Shown: in pieces, positions 1,357 to 41,455 of the stretch
How the letters are laid out: each line of letters begins with the position of its first letter
Numbering within the stretch: the stretch's first letter is position 1
From: a virus
Lineage: Duplodnaviria; Heunggongvirae; Uroviricota; Caudoviricetes
DNA: 41,455 nucleotides
Direction: 5' to 3' (one strand)
IMG/VR virus record: IMGVR_UViG_2585427970_000004
The notes under the pieces: model-generated
Seen by the model: the letters and a program-made list of their open reading frames with translations, nothing else
What the model was told of the DNA's origin: nothing
Databases searched by the model: none
Made by a program: the position numbers and the translations under genes

Positions 1357-2247
1357 TCAGGCTGCCAGATCATCGTTTCCGATGGAAGCATAATAAGCTT
1401 TTTCTGCTTCTGCCGGAGGAGTATGGCCCAGCCTTTCCAGCAATCGTCGATTGTTATACCAGTCCACCCACGTGAGTGTGGCCAGTTCCACTTCTGCACG
1501 GTTTTTCCAGCTCTTACGGTGTATTACCTCCGCTTTGTAAAGACCATTGATGCTCTCCGCCATCGCGTTGTCATACGAGTCGCCTGTACTTCCTGTTGAT
1601 GCCAGTAATCCGGCTTCCTTAAGCCGCTGTGTGTAGGCCAGCGATACATACTGAGAACCTTTATCACTGTGATGGACCGTGCCGGACGGTCGACGGGCCC
1701 ATAACGCCTGCTCCAGTGCATCCAGCACGAATGTCGTTTCCATGGACGATGAGACCCGCCACCCCACGATGTATCCGGCAAACACATCAATGATGAACGC
1801 CACATAGACGAAGCCCCGCCATGTGCTGACGTAAGTAAAATCAGCCACCCACAGCTGGTCAGGTCGTTCTGCCACGAACTGACGGTTTACGCGGTCGCCT
1901 GCGGCAACGGCTTTCCGGCTGATGGTCGTACGGACCTTTTTACCCCGGAGAACACCGGCAAGTCCCATAACCGCCATGAGACGTGCCACAGTGCATCTGG
2001 CCACTCTGATACCTTCCCGTAACAACTGACGCCAGACTTTACGCACACCGTATACCTTGTGATTTTCATCGTATACGCGCTGTATCTCTTTCTTCAGCCA
2101 GTCATCGCGCTGCGCACGGGCACTGCGTTTATCCGGATGATGTCGCTGTTGCTGACAGTGGTAATACGTTGACGGGGCAATATGTAGTTCACTGCATACC
2201 GGTCCGACCCCGTACAGCTTACGCAGCTTATCCAGCAGTGGCATCAC
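1357..2247 (-). CDS. IS3-family transposase OrfB (DDE integrase core), probably expressed as an OrfAB frameshift fusion
   Basis: 296-aa ORF with DDE-type core ([11 protein letters not shown]...HSDKGSQY...[15 protein letters not shown]); overlaps OrfA in the -1 frame at an AAAAAG stretch (2247..2252 on the minus strand). Confidence 0.9.
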
Positions 2248-2570
2248 TTTTTCCAGAGGCGGTCGAACTCCGCCTTCGCAAAATAAGCGGAAGCCTGGCG
2301 AAGGATATCGTTACTGCGGCGCAGTTCACGATTTTCACGTTCCAGCTCTTTCAGACGCTGACGTTCAGCGGTGGTGAGCCCTCCATCACCGCCCCCGGTA
2401 TCCCGCTCATGCTGGCGAACCCAGACACGCAGAGTCTCCGGCGTACAGCCAATCTTTGGAGCAATGGAACAAATTGTCGCCCATTGTGAGTCATATTCGC
2501 TCTGACTTTCCAGAACCATACGGACTGCCCGTTGACGGACTTCGGGGGAAAAACGAGTATTTTTAGTCAT
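2244..2570 (-). CDS. IS3-family transposase OrfA (HTH)
   Basis: 108-aa [53 protein letters not shown]...; leucine-zipper-like C-terminus; recalled as IS629/IS1203-type OrfA. Confidence 0.9.
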
Positions 2571-27134: not shown

Positions 27135-27770
27135 TTACGGCACAAATGAATCTATAGCATCAAGCAACTCATTCACATTCGTATAACACCCAAGAAGAAA
27201 TGGTCTATTAGAATGAGGAGGAGCTGCATTTAAACTTTGTTTATTTAGTGCCTTCGCTCTTTGTCTGGCATAAGGAATACCAAGTCTAATTTTCTTATAC
27301 AACGTAGCATCGGCTTTATTATAATCCTTTATACCCACTGATAGTAAATCTTTTTTCAAAGTAGAGTTTTTCTTTAGATCATCAAAACTTGAGTAAGGTG
27401 TATTCTTAAATGCAAAGTGTTGTAAAATCCACAATTCAAAACAAACATTTGACAACGCAATATTAATATTGTTTGCATGGGCTAAATCCCATGCTTCATG
27501 GTGTAATGTGTGTGGGTATTTTGTGACAGCCTCTCTATCATATACAACCCAAAATTCATCATCATCCGATGTATCACCACTTTCCTTGTGTTTAATTGCA
27601 GCCTTTACTAAGGCTATTGGTGTGTTATATTTTATATCAGGGATATGTATAACTTTTGCTTTCTCACTAGCAAATTCATCGATATAACCCTGCAAGTACA
27701 TAGGTTCTGTTTTAGACCCTTCGCAAAAAATATGCATTCGTTTCTCTAATTTTCTCACGTTTTTTGCCAT
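27135..27770 (-). CDS. RloB-like (Toprim-like) protein, AbiLii-like
   Basis: 211 aa; N-terminal HIFCEGSKTEP and acidic FWVVYDRE motifs consistent with RloB/Toprim; AAGGTGA RBS; starts 6 nt after the ATPase stop; AT-rich. Confidence 0.65.
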   Translation of the reverse strand: MAKNVRKLEKRMHIFCEGSKTEPMYLQGYIDEFASEKAKVIHIPDIKYNTPIALVKAAIKHKESGDTSDDDEFWVVYDREAVTKYPHTLHHEAWDLAHANNINIALSNVCFELWILQHFAFKNTPYSSFDDLKKNSTLKKDLLSVGIKDYNKADATLYKKIRLGIPYARQRAKALNKQSLNAAPPHSNRPFLLGCYTNVNELLDAIDSFVP

Positions 27771-27776
27771 GATCTA

Positions 27777-29117
27777 TCACCTTAAATCTTCTGGAATATC
27801 ATCGATGTTACCAAATACTGTTAAATCAGTATCTTCAGGTTCACCACCTGTTACCCCAATGATAAAATCCTTTATTTTCATATAGTTAATTGATGGGACG
27901 CCACCAAAACGCCCTTCATCATACCACTTGTTAAAAGGTGAATTAGCCTTAACCTTTTCTTTATCAAACTCATCTAAACTATAAACTTCGGTTACACCTT
28001 TTTTCTTTTCAGTAAACCAAATCTGATCTCTTCTCATATTTTCTGATTTCATCAGCTCAATGTTATGAGTTGTAAATATGAGCTGAGAGCCTACTTTATT
28101 AACCTCACTATCGTTAAACAGTCTGATTAAAAGTGCAGCCAAATGTGGATGCATGCTGTGGTCTATTTCATCGATAATTAACACTCGATTTATTAAAAGA
28201 CCAGAAATTAGGGCAGGTGTTAATTCAAATAACCTACGGGTTCCTGCTGACTCATTTTCAATATCTATATCAGCACATTCTCCACCCTCCATGTCATGCT
28301 CAAATTTAAAGCTAAATCGATTTTCAGCCAAAATTCTTCGTTTCATATCTTCCGGCATTTCATCAGGTAGCTTAATATCTAGTTCTTTATTTTCGACAAT
28401 CCTTAGTTGGTTTATACCCGTATCAACCAATGATAAGAAGTTACCGGAAAAACGAATAAGCATGTCTCTAAATTTCTCATCCTCAAGATGAAGAGCATTA
28501 AAACTTGATTCCATTCCAATAGGACAAATTAACTGCGAAAAGTACTCATATACTTCCTTAGCAATCTCTGGAGCCTCAGCGACAGTGCCGATCTTTGATA
28601 GATAAGAGTTATTTTTAGAAAATGGAATTTTCTTTACTCCACCTTTGAATTGCGCCCCAAATTTAATATTCTCCCAACCATTATTCACACGATAGAACAA
28701 ATTCGATGGCTGCTTGGAGTAATAACAATCTAAACTCTCCAATATAATTTCTTTTTGAAGATAATGTATTTTATATTTAAATTTCAAATCATTGATCACA
28801 AAGTCAATTTCAAACTTTACTGGCTTTGAGATTGTTTTTTGACAAAGAGAATATGGTTCATAACAAGGGATATCCTCGCCATCTTTCAACGAAAAGCTAT
28901 CCTCAACAAGATAATTTAATGCAGAAAACACCTTTAGAAGGTTTGACTTCCCTGAAGCATTAGGACCATAAATTCCAACGGTACGTACAACCCGCTCATT
29001 GCTTTTGGGAAGAACAAGCAAATTATCGCTTAAGTGGTTACTTGTTGAACTACGCAGATCAAAGTTAACCTCTTCTTTGATCGACCTAAAATTCTCAACT
29101 TTTAAGGAAATTATCAT
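27777..29117 (-). CDS. ABC/AAA_21-type ATPase, AbiLi-like
   Basis: 446 aa; Walker A GPNASGKS (about aa 51-58), Walker B LIIDEID (about aa 313-319), TTHN H-loop-like motif; long helical insert between them as in OLD/AbiL-type ATPases; AT-rich. Confidence 0.7.
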   Translation of the reverse strand: MIISLKVENFRSIKEEVNFDLRSSTSNHLSDNLLVLPKSNERVVRTVGIYGPNASGKSNLLKVFSALNYLVEDSFSLKDGEDIPCYEPYSLCQKTISKPVKFEIDFVINDLKFKYKIHYLQKEIILESLDCYYSKQPSNLFYRVNNGWENIKFGAQFKGGVKKIPFSKNNSYLSKIGTVAEAPEIAKEVYEYFSQLICPIGMESSFNALHLEDEKFRDMLIRFSGNFLSLVDTGINQLRIVENKELDIKLPDEMPEDMKRRILAENRFSFKFEHDMEGGECADIDIENESAGTRRLFELTPALISGLLINRVLIIDEIDHSMHPHLAALLIRLFNDSEVNKVGSQLIFTTHNIELMKSENMRRDQIWFTEKKKGVTEVYSLDEFDKEKVKANSPFNKWYDEGRFGGVPSINYMKIKDFIIGVTGGEPEDTDLTVFGNIDDIPEDLR

Positions 29118-30662: not shown

Positions 30663-31588
30663 AAATCCACCCCGTAAATCCAGTCAGTGTTCGTCAGGTC
30701 GAGTTTTGGTTTGCCGGCTGTCACGCCAGCCTGTTGCTTGTTTCGGTTGATTTCGAGCTGGGTCCACTTGTCGCGGAGTTTGGCCGGACTCAGCACGTTA
30801 CCGGACCAGAAGTTGTCCTGGCATGCCCAGCGGAACAGCACGCACATGTCGCGGTGGTTACGTCCGTCACGTTCACGCATCAGGCGGATATCGTTAGCCC
30901 ACCCTGCAAAATTCGGTTTTCTGGCTGATGGCGCGATGGTCTTCACCATGTCAAACATCCACTCTGCGGCGGTCAGGTCTTCTGCTGTCCCCCACTTGCT
31001 GCCACTCTGAATTGCAGCATCCGGTTTCACCACAGGAAGGTCGTTTTCTGGCTGGTCAGAGGATTCGCCAGAATTCTCGGACGAAAAAGGTTTTATATTG
31101 TCTTTTGTTAGTTTGTCTTTTGTGTTTACCTGATTCGGGTAAACGCCTTTACCTGTTTTGGGTAAACTTTTCTTACCTGATTCAGGTAAATTTACCTCTT
31201 TCAGGTAAACTTTATTTTTCTTACCTGATTCGGGTAATGTTGACCATTCACTGACCACATTATTAATGCCGATATTCCGCCCGCTCTGAATAAGAATCCC
31301 ACGCTTTACCAGAACGCTTTTTGCAGCAGAACACTTGTGCGGCAATATCCCGGTCAATTCGGAAAGTTGCTCGTTGCTCACCCAATCCAGTTTTTTATTA
31401 AAGCCATATGTTTTGCGCATGACAGCCAGGAAGACCAGAAGCTGGTGCTGTGTTAATCCGGCCAGCATCACAGCTTCCAGCAACTCATTTGCAATGCGCG
31501 TATAACCATCATCGAGATCTGCCACGCGCGGCTCCTTTTGTGCCGCATCCGGCACTGGAAAATTGAATATCTCAGCAGTGTTTGCCAT
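30659..31588 (-). CDS. O: Replication initiator O-like protein (lambda O-type N-terminus, divergent C-terminus)
   Basis: Start refined to ATG 31588 (GGGAGG RBS; MANTAEIFNFPV…ADLDDGY…LRKTYGFNK resembles the lambda O N-terminus); iterons lie inside the gene. Confidence 0.8.
   Translation of the reverse strand: MANTAEIFNFPVPDAAQKEPRVADLDDGYTRIANELLEAVMLAGLTQHQLLVFLAVMRKTYGFNKKLDWVSNEQLSELTGILPHKCSAAKSVLVKRGILIQSGRNIGINNVVSEWSTLPESGKKNKVYLKEVNLPESGKKSLPKTGKGVYPNQVNTKDKLTKDNIKPFSSENSGESSDQPENDLPVVKPDAAIQSGSKWGTAEDLTAAEWMFDMVKTIAPSARKPNFAGWANDIRLMRERDGRNHRDMCVLFRWACQDNFWSGNVLSPAKLRDKWTQLEINRNKQQAGVTAGKPKLDLTNTDWIYGVDL
31125..31237. repeat. Replication origin iterons (five palindromic repeats) inside the O gene, next to an AT-rich tract (about 31080..31124)
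   Basis: Five copies of TTTACCTGATTCGGGTAAA-like palindromes at 31125, 31148, 31172, 31191 and 31219; encode the repeated LPESGKK peptide in O. Confidence 0.75.
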
Positions 31589-31674
31589 AATTCCTCCCGC
31601 AATGAGTGTGTTACGATTTGCACCTGAAAGTCGGTTCTGTTCCAGCAGACCGGCTTTCGCCATTTCTGAACCTG

Positions 31675-32220
31675 TCATATCGCCCCCAGCATGGTAGTAA
31701 CCATCGCCATCAATGGACCAGCCAGATCCGGGTCCACACGAAACATCGACACAATACCTTCACTAATTTCCTTCAGTTTCTGGTGGCGTGGTGCGTTGAG
31801 AATGACCGCCTGCTTTGCCTCACAGAGTTCCTTTTCCATTTCAGCCAGCCGAGCCATGAAGCTATCCTGCTCAACCAGGTGGCCGCGATATTCCAGCGGT
31901 AGTACCGCCAGAATTGCCGGGGTCAGTTCACGCACGTTATTTCGGTATTTTTCAGAATCGAATTTGTTATCGAGGAAGCGGAACAGCTTCTGGCGTGCAC
32001 GGCTGACATCATCAGGGAAATCGATGGTGCCGCCGCCCTGCTCCCGATACTCATTCACAATGAGTGCGGCAACAACATCCTGATTATCTGCAGCCGACCA
32101 GGCGCGAACGGCATCACGGATTTTTTCGTGGCCTGGCGCCTGTTTTGTTTGAGAACGATTTATCACCGCCGTCGGGCTAAATCCGCTAGTCTGTTGGTAT
32201 GTAAGTGATTGCATAGTCAT
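31675..32220 (-). CDS. CII-position regulatory protein (YdaT-like)
   Basis: 181 aa; between cro-like and O; stop overlaps the track-predicted O start; family guess by position and weak recall. Confidence 0.4.
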   Translation of the reverse strand: MTMQSLTYQQTSGFSPTAVINRSQTKQAPGHEKIRDAVRAWSAADNQDVVAALIVNEYREQGGGTIDFPDDVSRARQKLFRFLDNKFDSEKYRNNVRELTPAILAVLPLEYRGHLVEQDSFMARLAEMEKELCEAKQAVILNAPRHQKLKEISEGIVSMFRVDPDLAGPLMAMVTTMLGAI

Positions 32221-32244
32221 TGCCTTATCAGTTAACGCCGCAGT

Positions 32245-32472
32245 TTAGGCGGCAGAATTACTCGCGTTAAACAATGGTGCGAGGTCGGGACGAATATCTG
32301 CTGGTTTAATCTTTCCACCAGTGGCTGAGACAATTTTCATTACATAGCGGGCATCAATTCCGCCACCGTGTAGCCAACGCCAAACAGTGGGTTGGGCTAC
32401 ACCGCATAGATCTGCCAGTCGTTTTTGACTACCTGTAATACTAATTGCGAGTTGAATGGTTTGATTTGTCAT
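32245..32472 (-). CDS. Cro-like HTH regulator (YdaS/Cro family)
   Basis: Start refined to ATG 32472 (AGGA RBS); HTH segment SQKRLADLCGVAQPTVWRW; divergent from cI. Confidence 0.6.
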   Translation of the reverse strand: MTNQTIQLAISITGSQKRLADLCGVAQPTVWRWLHGGGIDARYVMKIVSATGGKIKPADIRPDLAPLFNASNSAA

Positions 32473-32503
32473 TATCAATTCCTATTGGTATTGCAATGAA
32501 TAG

Positions 32504-32532
32504 ATAATAGCAATGCGTATTAACTCAATCAA
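32504..32532 (-). promoter_or_regulatory. PR-like sigma70 promoter for the cro-like operon
   Basis: Minus strand -35 TTGATT (32527..32532), 17-bp spacer, -10 TATTAT (32504..32509); operator-like AATAGCAAT motif in the spacer. Confidence 0.55.
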
Positions 32533-32546
32533 TAGCAAAACGTGTT

Positions 32547-32575
32547 TTGACCATCAATACGCAAGCGTATAAATT
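32547..32575 (+). promoter_or_regulatory. PRM-like promoter for cI; transcript predicted leaderless
   Basis: -35 TTGACC (32547..32552), 17-bp spacer, -10 TAAATT (32570..32575), ending about 7 nt before the cI ATG at 32583, which has no SD. Confidence 0.45.
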
Positions 32576-32582
32576 AAAACTT

Positions 32583-33275
32583 ATGAAAAAAGAAACTCTT
32601 GCTGATCGCTTAAACCTAGCGATGGAACAATCTGGAATGTCTCAAGGCGCTCTTGCAAAGGCGTCTGGCGTAGCTCAACCCACAATCTGGAGACTGACAA
32701 GCGGCAACGCGCGTGGCTCAACAAAAATTGTTGAAATAGCTAATGCATTGGGTGTTCGAACAGAGTGGCTCTCATCAGGCATAGGCCCGATGAGAAATGA
32801 CGGTCAACAATCAGGAAAGCCTGCTGTCAACCATTCCAAATACTTCAAGATTGACGTTCTTGATATAGAAGTGAGTGCCGGGCCGGGAGTCATCAACCGT
32901 GAGTTTGTAGAAGTTCTACGCTCGGTTGAGTACTCGTTTGACGATGCTCGTCACATGTTCGATGGTAGGAAGGCAGAAAATATCCGCATCATTAACGTGC
33001 GTGGTGACAGCATGTCAGGAACGATCGAACCAGGTGATCTGCTGTTCGTTGATATCACGGTTAAATCTTTCGACGGTGATGGTATCTATGCGTTTCTGTA
33101 CGACGACACAGCCCATGTAAAGCGCCTGCAAATGATGAAGGATAAGCTGCTGGTTATCTCTGATAACAAGAGCTACTCACCGTGGGACCCGATCGAGAAA
33201 GACGAGATGAACCGGGTGTTTATCTTCGGGAAAGTTATTGGGAGCATGCCGCAGACGTACAGGAAGCATGGGTAA
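32583..33275 (+). CDS. cI: CI-like repressor (HTH_XRE plus S24 LexA-like peptidase domain)
   Basis: Start refined to ATG 32583 (MKKETLADRLNLAMEQSGMSQGALAKASGVAQPTIWRL…); C-terminal GDSMSGTIEPGDLLFVD…HVKRL autocleavage-type motifs (Ser…Lys); track start is TTG. Confidence 0.85.
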   Translation: MKKETLADRLNLAMEQSGMSQGALAKASGVAQPTIWRLTSGNARGSTKIVEIANALGVRTEWLSSGIGPMRNDGQQSGKPAVNHSKYFKIDVLDIEVSAGPGVINREFVEVLRSVEYSFDDARHMFDGRKAENIRIINVRGDSMSGTIEPGDLLFVDITVKSFDGDGIYAFLYDDTAHVKRLQMMKDKLLVISDNKSYSPWDPIEKDEMNRVFIFGKVIGSMPQTYRKHG

Positions 33276-33320
33276 AAATGGAATTTATGAAACTTTAAAT
33301 TAATCAAATATTGAGTTTAT

Positions 33321-33740
33321 ATGATGCAACATAATATTCATAGTGATTATTTCAAGTGGTGGTGTGGAACGGTAATCATTGGAGCAATCCCTATCTTTAT
33401 TAGATTTATTGCTTATTTCATCACTAATAAAAATATAGAGATGATCAATATAACTGAGTTGATATGTTTTGGCTTTGCCATACAAATATCCAGCATCTAT
33501 TACGGAATGGGCCAACCTAGTAAGCAAACTGAAAACAATATTATTTTAAATACTACTATATCGATTGTTTTCATTGTGATTTTTTCTATAATTTACATTA
33601 TTGTCATGCTGGCTGATAACATCCTTAACATGAATACGACTCGCATATTAGTCGCTATTACTTGTGGTATATCCTTATACATTGGACAAAATTCGGTCAG
33701 GTGTGCTATTATCAATAACAAATTAGCAGCGCAGGAGTAA
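33321..33740 (+). CDS. Small integral membrane protein (4 predicted TM helices), first gene of the cassette in the rexAB-equivalent slot
   Basis: 139 aa; four hydrophobic segments; very AT-rich; immediately downstream of cI. Confidence 0.55.
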   Translation: MMQHNIHSDYFKWWCGTVIIGAIPIFIRFIAYFITNKNIEMINITELICFGFAIQISSIYYGMGQPSKQTENNIILNTTISIVFIVIFSIIYIIVMLADNILNMNTTRILVAITCGISLYIGQNSVRCAIINNKLAAQE

Positions 33741-33743
33741 ATT

Positions 33744-33920
33744 ATGGAGTTCTTAATTACTATTTTATCCATAATAGCTGTTGTGATACCTGCTGTATTG
33801 GCATGGTTTTCAAGAAAAAACCTCAAAAATGCACAGGAAACTTTAATTCACATAGAAAGGATCAGAAAATCAAACAGCGATGACTTTGAAAGAAAGAAAG
33901 AACAACTTAAATATCACTAA
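33744..33920 (+). CDS. Small single-TM protein (58 aa), below the ORF-track threshold
   Basis: AGGAG RBS 6 nt upstream of ATG 33744; MEFLITILSIIAVVIPAVLAWFSRKNLKNAQETLIHIERIRKSNSDDFERKKEQLKYH. Confidence 0.4.
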   Translation: MEFLITILSIIAVVIPAVLAWFSRKNLKNAQETLIHIERIRKSNSDDFERKKEQLKYH

Positions 33921-34830
33921 TGGAATTGGTATGCAGTTAAAAAATATCATTTATATTGATTATGAGAAGGTCTACTCTTTAAGCTCTCAATTATTTGAGG
34001 GCGTAATTCAATCCGCGATGGAGCATAAAGAGTCTACTCTTTCAAATATAGATGCAGTCGAAATTAAGACAAAAAGTAGTTCAAGTAAAACGAGTGACAC
34101 AAAAAAATTATCAACAGTGTTAAACCCTCATGATTACCATTATCTGAAATTTGAAAACGAACTTAGCAATAGAGGAATTCTATCTAACATAACTTCCCCG
34201 ATCGACTCGAACAAAATTAAGGCTAATTGCTTTGTTAAAATCACCTGCCCTATTCAATTTAATGACTATAGTAAATTAAAAAATACCGCGAAGGATTTTT
34301 GTAAAATTCACTATGCTATTAATTTCGTTCATCGAAATGGTGAATTAGAAAACCTAGAATCGATGCTGAAATCGATAAAACCCAAATCCAATGAATTTAA
34401 TATTATCAAGGCAAGACAAGCACAAATCAAAAGTGAGCTTGATAATTTAACTTCTCCAAATAAGAAAAAGTTTCTTGAGCATCTGTCTTCTGTTTTAGAT
34501 TACGCATATGGTGACGAAATAGAAATATCACAAAAAATGCAAGATATTAAATTCACCTCATTCTTAATCAGAGATTTTCTTAAAATCAGCCCAGAAATGT
34601 TTGTAAAGTTATATTCTCGTCGAACGACCTCTGCATTCACTGTCGTAGGGATGATAACGCGTACATCAACGTCTGAAGGCGATCAGGAATCAGAGGCTCG
34701 TGAACTAAGCGGCATTCGCAGTGCGGTCTGGAATATGAATGACAGCCTTTTTGATCTGGAGTCAACATTTTGTGCCCCTGACTCTGATGAATATTTCATT
34801 GAGCCTATTGCTGTTTACAATGAGCTATAA
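33880..34830 (+). CDS. Hypothetical soluble protein (~300-316 aa), third gene of the rex-slot cassette
   Basis: ORF from ATG 33880 overlaps the 58-aa ORF by 41 nt; alternative start ATG 33931 lies 10 nt after that ORF's stop; no motif I can assign; AT-rich; followed by a terminator. Confidence 0.55.
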   Translation: MTLKERKNNLNITNGIGMQLKNIIYIDYEKVYSLSSQLFEGVIQSAMEHKESTLSNIDAVEIKTKSSSSKTSDTKKLSTVLNPHDYHYLKFENELSNRGILSNITSPIDSNKIKANCFVKITCPIQFNDYSKLKNTAKDFCKIHYAINFVHRNGELENLESMLKSIKPKSNEFNIIKARQAQIKSELDNLTSPNKKKFLEHLSSVLDYAYGDEIEISQKMQDIKFTSFLIRDFLKISPEMFVKLYSRRTTSAFTVVGMITRTSTSEGDQESEARELSGIRSAVWNMNDSLFDLESTFCAPDSDEYFIEPIAVYNEL

Positions 34831-34835
34831 AAACA

Positions 34836-34863
34836 ACCCGGCCACTGCGCCGGGTTTTCTTTT
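34836..34863 (+). terminator. Rho-independent terminator after the rex-slot cassette
   Basis: ACCCGGC-CACTGC-GCCGGGT followed by TTTTCTTTT, 6 nt after the stop at 34830. Confidence 0.65.
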
Positions 34864-35004
34864 GCCCTCCCCTCATCACACAAACCGTTCGAAAAACCAC
34901 CACAACCTCGCTTCAGTTACCGCTATGCGATGCAAGTCACAAAATTAATTCTTTTTGCTATCAAACAGTTAATATCAAAACACATCAATCAATAGCAATA
35001 AGTA

Positions 35005-35033
35005 TTGATATCACCAATAGCAATAGCTATTAT
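35005..35033 (+). promoter_or_regulatory. PL-like sigma70 promoter with operator-like repeats (OL)
   Basis: -35 TTGATA (35005..35010), 17-bp spacer, -10 TATTAT (35028..35033); upstream TCAATCAATAGCAA (34985..34998) identical to the OR copy at 32525..32538. Confidence 0.55.
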
Positions 35034-35106
35034 CACCATGTCGCAACAACACAACGATACGGCAACCACCTGATTCACCGTTGCGATGACCGCTTAGATC
35101 CGCAGC

Positions 35107-35517
35107 TTGAATTTCAGCAGGCTACGGGAAGTGCGAGGGGTGAAGCGGACGCGTGAACGTCGGTGTGACCAGCTGAAATCAACTCAACACTTCATACCTC
35201 AGTCGCTTCAACGAGGCGGCTTAGTTATGACAACCGGCGGCCATCCACCGCCTGAATACGCGCAGAAGTCTTTATATGTTCAGCAGCCCAGCTTACGGGC
35301 AGGAGCTTTTATGGTTCATCAACATTACGGAACGCAGACCGTTAATCGCGGTGCGGTCATGCCAGGAATGCTGGTCAAACACAAAGATGGTACCTGGACA
35401 GCATCAGCTAATTTACGCGGACGGCTATATCTGCATCGCGGCATCGAGCGCACTTATACCCGTGATTTGCTCGTGGAAGTTTTTCTCGACGGACGCGGTA
35501 ACGGCCTCAATCACTAA
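35107..35517 (+). CDS. Hypothetical ORF in the N/kil position; probably a 69-aa product from ATG 35311
   Basis: Long open frame with no ATG before 35227; ATG 35311 has AGGAG RBS 5 nt upstream ([32 protein letters not shown]…); upstream segment encodes an arginine-rich stretch (KRTRERR). Confidence 0.3.
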
Positions 35518-38635: not shown

Positions 38636-38957
38636 GGCCTGTCAGTTTCTTAAGATATCCAGACCAACCGCCACCAACTGGATACGAACAGGCCGCCTAC
38701 AGGCAACACGTAAAGATCCAACCAAGCCAAAATCTCCTTACCTCACAACACGGCAAGCCTGCATTGCGGCGCTTCAGTCTCCGCTGCATACTGTCCAGGT
38801 GAGCGCGGGTGATGGCATAACAGAGGAAAGAAAATGTCACTCTTCCGCAGAAGTGAAATATGGTACGCCAGTTTCACATTGCCGAACGGTAAAAGATTTA
38901 AACAGTCTCTTGGAACAAAGGACAAAAGGCAGGCGACAGAGCTCCATGACAAGCTAA
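38607..38957 (+). CDS. Excisionase-like HTH protein
   Basis: ATG 38607 with GAGGT RBS; [34 protein letters not shown]; immediately upstream of and overlapping int. Confidence 0.5.
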
Positions 38958-39997
38958 AGGCTGAAGCATGGCGGGTCAGCAAACTTGGTGAAATACCTGA
39001 TATAACGTTCGAGGAAGCGTGTGTCAGGTGGCTTGAAGAGAAAGCACATAAAAAATCACTGGACGATGACAAAAGCCGGATCGGATTCTGGCTTCAACAT
39101 TTCGCAGGAATGCAACTAAGAGACATTACTGAATCAAAAATTTATTCAGCAATGCAGAAAATGACGAACCGGCGTCATGAGGAAAACTGGAGACTCAGGG
39201 CAGAAGCATGCAGAAAAAAAGGGAAACCTGTTCCAGAATACACGCCAAAACCAGCGTCCGTTGCAACGAAGGCTACGCATCTTTCATTTATAAAGGCCCT
39301 ACTAAGAGCCGCAGAGCGTGAATGGAAAATGCTGGATAAGGCACCAATTATTAAAGTGCCTCAACCAAAGAATAAACGGATCCGCTGGCTGGAGCCCCAT
39401 GAAGCACAAAGGCTGATTGATGAATGTCCGGAGCCATTAAAGTCTGTTGTTGAATTTGCACTGGCAACAGGCTTAAGACGCTCGAACATCATCAACCTTG
39501 AATGGCAACAAATAGACATGCAGCGCCGGGTGGCATGGATAAACCCGGAAGAGAGTAAATCAAACCGCGCAATTGGCGTTGCGCTGAATGATACTGCATG
39601 TCGCGTTTTGAAAAAACAAATCGGGAATCATCACCGTTGGGTATTTGTGTACAAGGAAAGCTGTACCAAACCAGACGGAACGAAAGCGCCAACAGTAAGG
39701 AAGATGCGGTATGACGCAAACACAGCCTGGAAAGCGGCGCTGAGACGGGCTGGTATTGATGATTTCAGATTTCACGACTTGAGACACACCTGGGCAAGTT
39801 GGCTGGTTCAAGCCGGAGTCCCGTTGTCAGTGTTACAGGAAATGGGAGGCTGGGAGTCTATCGAAATGGTTCGTCGATATGCTCACCTTGCACCTAATCA
39901 CCTTACCGAACACGCACGGCAAATAGACTCGATCCTGAACCCATCGGTCCCAAATTCGTCCCAGTCAAAAAATAAGGAAGGTACTAATGATGTGTAA
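38834..39997 (+). CDS. int: Tyrosine integrase (tRNA-Thr site-specific, IntF-like)
   Basis: 387 aa; C-terminal catalytic motifs (…[42 protein letters not shown]…); ends 15 nt before the tRNA 3' end. Confidence 0.9.
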
Positions 39998-40011: not shown

Positions 40012-40087
40012 TGGTGCCGATAATAGGAGTCGAACCTACGACCTTCGCATTACGAATGCGCTGCTCTACCAACTGAGCTATATCGGC
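40012..40087 (-). tRNA. thrW: tRNA-Thr (anticodon CGU), thrW-like; prophage integration target
   Basis: rc = GCCGATATAGCTCAGTTGGTAGAGCAGCGCATTCGTAATGCGAAGGTCGTAGGTTCGACTCCTATTATCGGCACCA; cloverleaf with anticodon loop TTCGTAA, TPsiC-loop TTCGACT, 3' CCA. Confidence 0.9.
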
Positions 40088-40201: not shown

Positions 40202-41455
40202 TTACGCACGAATGGTGTAATCACCAATGCCGATCCACTTGTAAGTGGTCAGTGCTTCCAGCCCCATTGGGCCACGCGCGTGGAGTTTTTGTGTGCTTAC
40301 CGCCACTTCCGCACCCAGACCAAACTGGCCGCCGTCGGTAAAACGCGTAGAGGCGTTAACGTAAACAGCGGACGAATCCACTTCGTTAACAAAACGCTGG
40401 GCGTTGCGCATATCGCGGGTCAGGATCGCATCGGAGTGTTGTGTGCCGTGTTCACGAATATGGGCGATGGCATCGTCAAGATCGCTGACGATTTTGACGT
40501 TCAAATCTAATGACAGAAACTCATCGTCATACTCTTCGGCTTTAACAGCAACCACCTTCGCAGGGCCTGCCTGCAACTGCGCCAGTGCAGCTGCATCTGC
40601 GTGTAATGTCACGCCGCTTTCCGCCATTTGTTTGCTTAATGCGGGCAGGAAGCTATCGGCGATGTTTTTATTCACCAGCAACGTTTCAACCGTATTACAT
40701 GTGCTCGGACGCTGAGTTTTCGCGTTGACGATCACTTTTAATGCTTCAGCGATCTCTACACTTTCATCAACGTAAATATGGCATACGCCTATACCACCTG
40801 TGATCACCGGGATTGTCGACTGTTCACGGCACAGTTTATGCAAACCAGCGCCACCACGCGGGATCAGCATGTCGATGTATTTATCCATACGCAGCATTTC
40901 ACTGACCAGCGCACGGTCAGGATTATCAATCGCCTGCACGGCACCCGCCGGTAAGCCGCAGGATTTCAGGGCGTCCTGAATCACCGCCACCGTTGCAGCG
41001 TTAGTGCGACACGTTTCTTTGCCACCGCGCAGGATCACCGCATTACCGGTTTTCAGGCACAGCGAAGCGACATCAACCGTCACGTTCGGGCGCGCTTCAT
41101 AAATCACGCCAATAACCCCCAGCGGTACGCGACGACGCTCAAGACGCAGGCCGCTGTCCAGTACGCCGCCATCGATTACCTGCCCCACCGGATCGGCGAG
41201 GTTGCACACCTGACGTACATCGTCGGCAATGCCTTTCAGCCGTGCGGGCGTCAGTGCCAGACGGTCAAGCATCGCTTCGCTAAGGCCATTGGCTCGCGCG
41301 TCAGCAACATCCTGGGCGTTAGCGTTGAGGATGATTTCGCTTTGTGCTTCCAGTTCATCGGCGATTTTTTCCAGCACGCGATTTTTTTCGCGGCTGGAGA
41401 GTTGCGCTAATTTATACGAGGCTTGCTTCGCGGCAATGCCCATTTGTTCCAGCAT
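40202..41455 (-). CDS. proA: Gamma-glutamyl phosphate reductase ProA (host gene)
   Basis: 417 aa; [66 protein letters not shown]…; start coincides with the window end. Confidence 0.95.

Follow-up and report, generated by a model that had tools for sequence, protein, structure and literature searches.

A DUF6414 gene and two small membrane-protein genes in the cI-PL slot of a lambdoid prophage: a candidate anti-phage module

What does a lambdoid prophage carry in the slot between its cI repressor gene and its PL promoter, the position of rexAB in phage lambda? This question was raised by IMG/VR virus record IMGVR_UViG_2585427970_000004, a stretch of 41,455 nt (the window, on whose numbering all positions are given) in which three small genes, here called A, B and C, follow cI on the + strand. 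A first-pass annotation of this stretch had proposed that these genes form a novel and unassigned exclusion system. Our analysis suggests that the cassette should rather be seen as a new arrangement built on a known defence-associated protein family (DUF6414, reported as the family of DolA of the Dodola system). On balance, and with modest confidence, we take it to be a lysogen-expressed and horizontally exchanged anti-phage module of three cooperating proteins, acting by exclusion or abortive infection, a reading built on sequence comparison and structure prediction.

The three open reading frames (ORFs), closely packed and in the same orientation, occupy the gap from the cI stop codon (33273-33275) to a hairpin at 34835-34856. 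Gene A (33321..33740, + strand) was predicted to encode a four-helix integral membrane protein of 139 aa, gene B (33744..33920, + strand) a single-pass membrane protein of 58 aa, and gene C (33931..34830, + strand) a soluble DUF6414 protein of 299 aa. The AGGAG ribosome-binding site of gene B lies 7 nt 5′ of its ATG, within the 3′ end of gene A and immediately before the gene A stop codon, while only 10 nt separate the end of gene B from the start of gene C. For the latter, the long ORF spans 33880..34830 (316 aa), and the ATG at 33931 is the likelier start because the Pfam match opens at residue 20 of this long ORF and because the Prokaryotic Genome Annotation Pipeline (PGAP) chose the equivalent start in Escherichia coli NADC1036, whose copy of the cassette is 96% identical. 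The GC fraction of the cassette is 0.33, versus 0.47 for cI and 0.50 for the window. The three AT-rich genes, the terminator and the PL/OL-like promoter described in the first-pass annotation were all recovered at the positions it had given them.

The cassette genes are not mere chance ORFs. Compared with copies of ca. 96% nucleotide identity, the ratio of nonsynonymous to synonymous substitution rates was 0.09-0.11 for gene A, 0.35 for gene B (from five differences only) and 0.17 for gene C, and all three genes are evidently under purifying selection.

The first-pass annotation had found no assignable motif in the ca. 300-aa protein. Protein C nevertheless turned out to be a full-length member of Pfam family DUF6414 (PF19952; E=1.2e-18, 68.3 bits against a cut-off of 25, profile positions 1-283 of 283), and PGAP names the NADC1036 copy "DUF6414 family protein". 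All 39 homologues of C retrieved by word-index search matched PF19952 (39/39), and no hydrophobic segment was seen in its hydropathy profile. A profile search of 1.84 billion representatives returned 965 clusters (50% identity clusters) at E<=1e-3 and 241 at E<=1e-30, and among the best 150 clusters listed nearly all were single-domain proteins of about 300 aa. In the AlphaFold2 (AF2) model of C (pLDDT 79.9, pTM 0.70), a beta-barrel, weakly resembling an OB fold, is interrupted by a long helical hairpin (residues 113-192), and residues 25-63 form a disordered loop. No solved structure of C or its relatives was found by sequence search, and Foldseek searches with the model against PDB and BFVD gave nothing below E=0.1.

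Conservation within C was measured over 142 representatives with a median identity of 26% to the window protein. Residues S16, Q20, G24, D68, E75, D112, R230, G240, E287 and P292 were 94-99% conserved in this set, and we read these near-invariant residues as a probable functional site, either catalytic or ligand-binding. As a separate observation, the motif QKGPxGSG(K/R) in the disordered loop (window 34003..34119) is kept by ca. 85% of the DUF6414 clade, and in the enterobacterial branch that includes the window protein this loop is swapped for a Ser/Thr/Lys-rich stretch. Reading the motif as a P-loop was rejected, as it does not conform to Walker A (no S/T follows the K) and is replaced in the enterobacterial clade of the window.

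Family membership connects C with Dodola, a system composed of a DUF6414 protein (DolA) and a ClpB-related protein (DolB) that protects Bacillus subtilis against phage SPP1 by a mechanism that is not known (bioRxiv 10.1101/2024.10.26.620412; PMC11514479). The resemblance lies in C belonging over its full length to the DolA family and in the organisation as a small multi-gene cassette found in mobile and defence contexts. In contrast to Dodola, however, C is always preceded by a four-transmembrane (four-TM) and a one-TM protein instead of being paired with ClpB: no ClpB-like or AAA+ partner of the DolB type flanked the cassette in the window, in NADC1036 or in the Klebsiella loci, nor did one occur within 3.5 kb in 19 further loci, and over all of the ca. 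40 loci none was seen in the cassette or near it. Moreover, Dodola has been validated in Bacillus, whereas the clade studied here is Gram-negative and a candidate only. Dodola was reportedly described by Millman et al. 2022; the text of the Millman preprint does not name it.

The two genes upstream of C encode membrane proteins of no recognised family. The AF2 model of A (pLDDT 76.5, pTM 0.70) consists of four long helices (residues 6-34, 44-62, 71-97 and 104-138) with which its hydropathy agrees, thereby bearing out the four TM helices of the first-pass annotation; its 58-aa single-TM ORF with an AGGAG ribosome-binding site proved equally sound. Positions W13, T17, G21, R28, G51 and S118 of A are invariant among distant homologues. 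Word-index search yielded 22 Enterobacterales homologues of A, often on the same contigs as the homologues of C, and gene A is intact in NADC1036 though PGAP leaves it unannotated there. Protein B has one N-terminal hydrophobic helix (residues 3-21, mean Kyte-Doolittle hydropathy 2.67; TM segment at about residues 3-23), followed by a charged C-terminal part with both basic and acidic residues that is predicted to be a cytoplasmic tail. Gene A had no match in Pfam, PADLOC or NCBIfam, and the only PADLOC match of B was a short hydrophobic one to PycTM (E=0.0067). The PHROGs database gave matches only to families of unknown function. A GtrA-like, transporter, holin or envelope-modification reading of A and B was considered and dropped, as neither Pfam nor NCBIfam supported it.

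That the three genes belong together is shown by their distribution. Loci were fetched with a profile of C, by way of its N-terminal motifs, after which the upstream DNA was read. The trio was found in the order A-B-C in 17/17 loci from species representatives of GTDB and in 19/19 IMG/VR loci. In the GTDB set, the first gene encodes a protein of 131-168 aa with three or four hydrophobic helices, the second a single-TM protein of 35-58 aa and the third the DUF6414 protein, and their stop and start codons usually overlap. These 17 loci stem from Buttiauxella, Aliiglaciecola, Methylobacter (two), Vreelandella, a Piscirickettsiaceae metagenome-assembled genome (MAG), Psychrobacter (two), Bacteriovorax, Salinicola, Marinobacterium, Bacteroidales (two), Pseudomonas, Sphingobium, Nitrosomonas and a Pseudomonadota MAG. 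The trio loci span Gamma-, Beta- and Alphaproteobacteria, Bacteroidales and Bacteriovorax (four phyla), and the trio is conserved down to about 25% identity, with A and B of distant loci aligning with the window proteins.

The trio was also present in L006 and L007, a GC-rich phage-like contig (28% identity) and a metagenome contig, and in Klebsiella pasteurii. In L008, which is another metagenome contig, genes were called for A and C, and a 118-nt gap, left unread, occupies the position of B. With gene B alone, word-index search gave two matches, a protein of 58 aa being too short for that search, and its conservation is therefore shown by its position in the loci: an equivalent of B stood at this position in every locus examined, with a length of 35-60 aa, except for 139 aa in L040 and L044. 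Overlaps of a few bases between the genes are frequent and would imply that translation is coupled and that the products form a stoichiometric complex.

The trio is rare, occurring in 1/5426 complete E. coli genomes. No plasmid record carried it, and among sequenced phages it was not found at the DNA level and in one phage at the protein level (Vibrio phage 10N.286.54.E4_PE001). The cassette is always richer in AT than its host, and in every locus the GC fraction of the DUF6414 gene (0.28-0.47) is lower than that of the locus (0.37-0.61). In four loci C is disrupted and A intact, by an in-frame stop in L017 and by frameshifts in L021, L023 (same sequence as L043) and L041; these interruptions could reflect either errors of assembly or selection against a C that is costly or toxic. 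AT-richness, patchy spread and occasional C pseudogenes next to an intact A would be typical traits of defence cargo.

The extent of the exchangeable cargo was apparent from a blastn comparison of the window with two E. coli prophages, L048 and L046, that carry cI at ca. 97-98% nucleotide identity (over 31500-33276). This identity of 97-98% ends at window position 33276-33279 and resumes at 34825-34830, and the exchanged segment (33277..34829, + strand) therefore begins with the first base 3′ of the cI stop codon and extends as far as the last codons of C, with the homology breaks lying where the prophages with the same cI carry other cargo. The sharp boundaries of the cargo, one at the cI stop and the other at the backbone terminator, agree with the horizontally acquired cargo that the first-pass annotation had deduced from base composition. 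Its "clean terminator" at the end of the cassette likewise exists, but as a part of the conserved phage backbone and not of the cargo, since the sequence from 34825 onward (34825-34900) occurs in 1311/5426 E. coli genomes, in which other cargo precedes it.

The same breakpoints enclose other cargo in L046 (2354..4002; E. coli SCU-152) and L047 (2565..3578; SK1144). One prophage carries an ImmA/IrrE protein together with a DUF4411 protein, of which the ImmA/IrrE protein matches the PADLOC models of capP (E=1e-14) and RmrA; another cargo is a 337-aa unknown protein with no PADLOC match. In L048 (2981..3980; E. coli 13TMH22, NZ_CP019256.1 595065-596064), the slot holds a different DUF6414 protein of 285 aa and 20% identity, which aligned over its full length with the C family (hhalign E=8e-5) and is preceded by an overlapping 59-aa non-membrane ORF. 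This 59-aa ORF is a putative third partner type for DUF6414, after the TM pair and the Clp-like ATPase. Judged from these alignments, the slot is a cargo hotspot with sharp, reusable breakpoints. This accords with the description of the cI-N interval as a mosaic hotspot holding the abortive infection systems rexAB and bstA, served by a repressor promoter that is among the most active in lysogens (PMC8585504).

The small ORF in front of the L048 gene also bears on another explanation of the trio, namely an addiction or toxin-antitoxin-like module that stabilises the element, has no dedicated anti-phage role, and consists of a toxin (the membrane proteins A and/or B, or else C) kept in check by its partner. 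The small, overlapping and translationally coupled genes would suit this arrangement, as would the recurrent disruption of C while A stays intact and the resemblance of the L048 gene and its preceding overlapping 59-aa ORF to an antitoxin-toxin pair. However, no toxin-antitoxin family was matched in Pfam, NCBIfam or PADLOC, and for many chromosomal copies, flanked by housekeeping genes, there is nothing to stabilise. We consider an addiction module very unlikely, bearing in mind that toxin-antitoxin behaviour and abortive infection are not mutually exclusive.

The genomic neighbourhoods of the trio elsewhere fit a role in phage exclusion or defence. In temperate phages the trio lies directly 3′ of the repressor gene, behind at least six different repressor alleles of lambdoid, Rac-like and 186-like prophages; the lambdoid and Rac-like cases come from Escherichia, Klebsiella, Buttiauxella and others, and the 186-like Vibrio phage 10N.286.54.E4_PE001 has the order cI, A, B, C, int. 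In L042 the trio follows the tape-measure gene, and in L023 and L043 it stands beside a Zot-like gene, as read from the sequence. The lambdoid placement that the first-pass annotation had emphasised was right for this prophage, but the trio is not lambdoid-specific, being found in 186-like, filamentous and other phages and in chromosomal islets.

Outside phages, PD-T4-4 A and B genes were encountered directly upstream of the trio (E=1e-77 and 5e-15), PIN_8 proteins are encoded downstream of it in both Bacteroidales loci, a GmrSD_N/PDC-M55C protein adjoins it in one locus (E=2e-73), and a DndB/DpdB-like protein adjoins it in another; a weak TIR match was also adjacent to the trio. The window prophage itself offers a further association, as AbiL in the same prophage counts for the defence reading of the trio. 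All other copies form AT-rich islets that stand isolated among housekeeping genes (alaS-lysC, ylqF-mutY, uvrA and leuS, by reading of the sequence). Independently of their function, some of these islets recur at the same chromosomal site in related taxa, again by reading of the sequence: after alaS in two Methylobacter (L011/L012), after a YlqF-like GTPase gene in two Psychrobacter (L015/L021), and after uvrA in Sphingobium and the Pseudomonadota MAG (L022/L025). No integrase was visible within 3.5 kb of the recurring islets.

The isolated islets could also be taken to favour lysogenic-conversion or physiological cargo unrelated to phages, whose benefit to the host would lie in an envelope, stress or transport function. 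Not all morons of lambdoid prophages serve defence (bor and lom are examples that do not), no family could be assigned to the membrane proteins A and B, and several copies of the trio are islets without defence neighbours. The trio nevertheless adjoins defence genes and repressors repeatedly, its DUF6414 protein is tied to Dodola, and no similarity to GtrA, transporters or an envelope-modification family was found, which makes host-benefit cargo a highly improbable explanation.

Among characterised systems other than Dodola, lambda RexAB is a close parallel in position and composition. Both cassettes occupy the slot between cI and OL/PL (as the coordinates of cI and of the OL/PL-like region confirm for the window, in line with the first-pass annotation), lie on the cI strand, have a terminator at their end, and combine a ca. 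140-aa four-TM protein with a cytoplasmic protein of ca. 280-300 aa, with presumed expression in the lysogen. RexB has been described as a channel activated by the sensor RexA (PMC8585504). Unlike in rexAB, the membrane protein comes first (the order is reversed), an extra one-TM protein is present, and the cassette also occurs far outside lambdoid phages. The lack of resemblance to RexA and RexB noted in the first-pass annotation held in profile comparison, where hhalign probabilities stayed below 1% (A family vs lambda RexB, 0.3% over 24 aligned columns; C vs RexA, 0.1%).

Kiwa offers a second parallel, in that a small multi-pass membrane protein is encoded directly upstream of a ca. 300-aa soluble protein. 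It consists of the four-TM protein KwaA and the DUF4868 protein KwaB and is a precedent for a membrane sensor with a cytoplasmic effector. Kiwa has two genes rather than three, however, and C is a DUF6414 and not a DUF4868 protein: Pfam found no DUF4868 in C, and the KwaA and KwaB models of PADLOC and NCBIfam gave no significant match (B vs NCBIfam KwaA, E=0.054, 13 bits against a cut-off of 100). With BstA the trio shares its place as cargo immediately 3′ of a prophage repressor, with a Rho-independent terminator and probable transcription together with the repressor. BstA differs in being a single KilA-N-domain protein with a DNA-encoded self-immunity element, and no KilA-N or BstA similarity was found in A, B or C (Pfam, E<=1). 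Known Abi, PDC and HEC systems were also considered as identities and set aside, as PADLOC-DB v2.0.0 gave 0 matches for A, 0 for C and only PycTM for B, and NCBIfam none above its cut-off.

With two of its three products being small inner-membrane proteins, the trio also invites an explanation as superinfection exclusion (Sie) at the envelope, in which an A/B complex with C as its cytoplasmic partner blocks phage DNA entry and the cell survives, as with P22 SieA, HK97 gp15 and T4 Imm. The apparent expression from the repressor operon, and the fact that the cassette follows the repressor in many temperate phages, would agree with this. Known Sie proteins, however, mostly consist of one small membrane protein directed against relatives of the carrier phage, whereas the trio invariably includes a cytoplasmic protein of 300 aa in which acidic residues and arginine form a near-invariant cluster, occurs also in chromosomal defence islands and islets unrelated to any phage, and has in Dodola a DUF6414 relative whose partner is a cytoplasmic ATPase. 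Exclusion at the envelope in this narrow sense therefore seems rather unlikely.

Returning to the three-protein anti-phage module, its expression would be coupled to lysogeny. No terminator-like site was predicted between cI and gene A, and the cassette would share the maintenance and establishment promoters of cI, being active in the lysogen and silent in lytic growth. The presumed cI-cargo transcript would end at the terminator-like hairpin (34835-34856) with its T-run (34835..34866, + strand), a strong bidirectional intrinsic terminator that insulates the cassette from PL. The PL-like promoter itself (35005-35033, + strand; TTGATA-17-TATTAT, a sigma-70-like 10/12 match) points away from the cassette, and two operator-like 17-mer repeats (34990-35006 and 35015-35031) overlap it to form an OL/PL-like region at 34990..35033. 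A promoter-like site within the 3′ end of A (33683-33712) was given no weight as an internal promoter, being a consensus match only, in a scan that found 9 sites versus 9.8 expected in shuffled sequence.

In the mechanism that we propose, A and B would form a small inner-membrane complex on which C docks, perhaps via the charged tail of B or via its own helical hairpin. Upon infection by another phage, this complex would collapse membrane integrity or potential, or block the incoming genome, and phage production would stop. As to the division of labour, we tentatively prefer a polarity in which C, as the conserved core, would respond to a phage cue, with A/B as an exchangeable effector in the membrane, because DUF6414 is the part that stays constant whichever of the three partner types (TM pair, Clp-like ATPase or small soluble protein) accompanies it. 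Rex, CBASS and Pycsar commonly use small TM proteins as interchangeable effectors. The opposite, Kiwa-like polarity is a possible alternative: A/B would sense at the membrane, and C would act on nucleic acid through its barrel and acidic cluster. This would be favoured by the barrel with its weak OB resemblance, by the near-invariant acidic residues, by the repeated inactivation seen for C and by the small, antitoxin-like ORF that precedes the other DUF6414 cargo. As for classification, it is a fair conjecture, though one we hold with less conviction than the anti-phage role as such, that the trio is a distinct, as yet unnamed anti-phage system in which DUF6414 forms a shared core coupled to at least three kinds of partner.

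Several points weigh against an anti-phage role. Co-transcription with cI is something we infer from the absence of a predicted terminator. As the loci were selected by N-terminal motifs of C, the 100% occurrence of the trio holds for this clade and not for all DUF6414 proteins. No PADLOC model matched C (E<=1), A, or 23 members of the C family (E<=10); PADLOC v2 is said to include DolA. The apparent link to Dodola is one of shared Pfam membership only, as stated in a review preprint. In a literature search with DUF6414, PF19952 and RefSeq protein accessions, DUF6414 appeared in one review sentence only, and the proteins and PF19952 nowhere. Finally, guilt by association is weaker for the many copies that stand alone between genes of the alaS, uvrA, ylqF and leuS type.

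Should the trio protect against phage, it would represent a compact (ca. 1.5-kb) membrane-coupled system that is apparently absent from current detection models, and an experimental handle on DUF6414, a Dodola component without known activity. Elucidating such a separate system would in addition reveal the role of DolA in Dodola, and the trio would constitute a second, unrelated Rex-like design of membrane and soluble proteins in the rexAB slot. Protection would further support regarding the repressor-proximal slot of temperate phages as a place where defence cargo generally docks, and the sharp breakpoints (the cI stop and the shared terminator) make this slot easy to mine for further candidates.

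The remainder of the window is that of a lambdoid prophage. With cI drawn on the + strand, cro-, O- and P-like genes lie to its left on the - strand, and kil-like, gam, bet, exo and int genes, followed by a tRNA-Thr, to the right of the cassette, with the genes on the + strand. Between the PL-like promoter and the 68-aa KilR-like gene (35313..35517), no N-like antiterminator ORF was evident in the region 34866..35313. PGAP annotates no N-like ORF in NADC1036 either, and the leader of ca. 280 nt had no Rfam match at gathering thresholds. The cI-type repressor gene spans 32547..33275 (+ strand), with its likely start at Met13 (32583), and encodes Peptidase_S24 (Pfam E=1.5e-18) and HTH_3 (E=1.5e-6) domains; PGAP gives it 229 aa in NADC1036.

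The second defence system of the prophage lies in the nin region between ren/P and Q (window 27135..29117, - strand). It comprises a 445-aa AbiLi (PADLOC E=2.9e-82) with a 210-aa AbiLii (PADLOC E=1.2e-20) beside it, which carry the labels "AAA family ATPase" and "RloB family protein" in NADC1036. Close to its left end, the window contains an ALIL pseudoknot (Rfam RF01497, 116 bits; 2173..2289, - strand), overlapped by an ORF at 1357..2247 (- strand). The pseudoknot is presumably the frameshift element of an IS3-family insertion sequence, and such a sequence appears to have inserted there. At the other end, the integrase ORF (38834..39997, + strand) abuts tRNA-Thr(CGT) (40012..40087, - strand), a junction that marks the attachment site and right boundary of the prophage; beyond the tRNA lies a 417-aa ORF (40202..41455) with proA as its counterpart in NADC1036.

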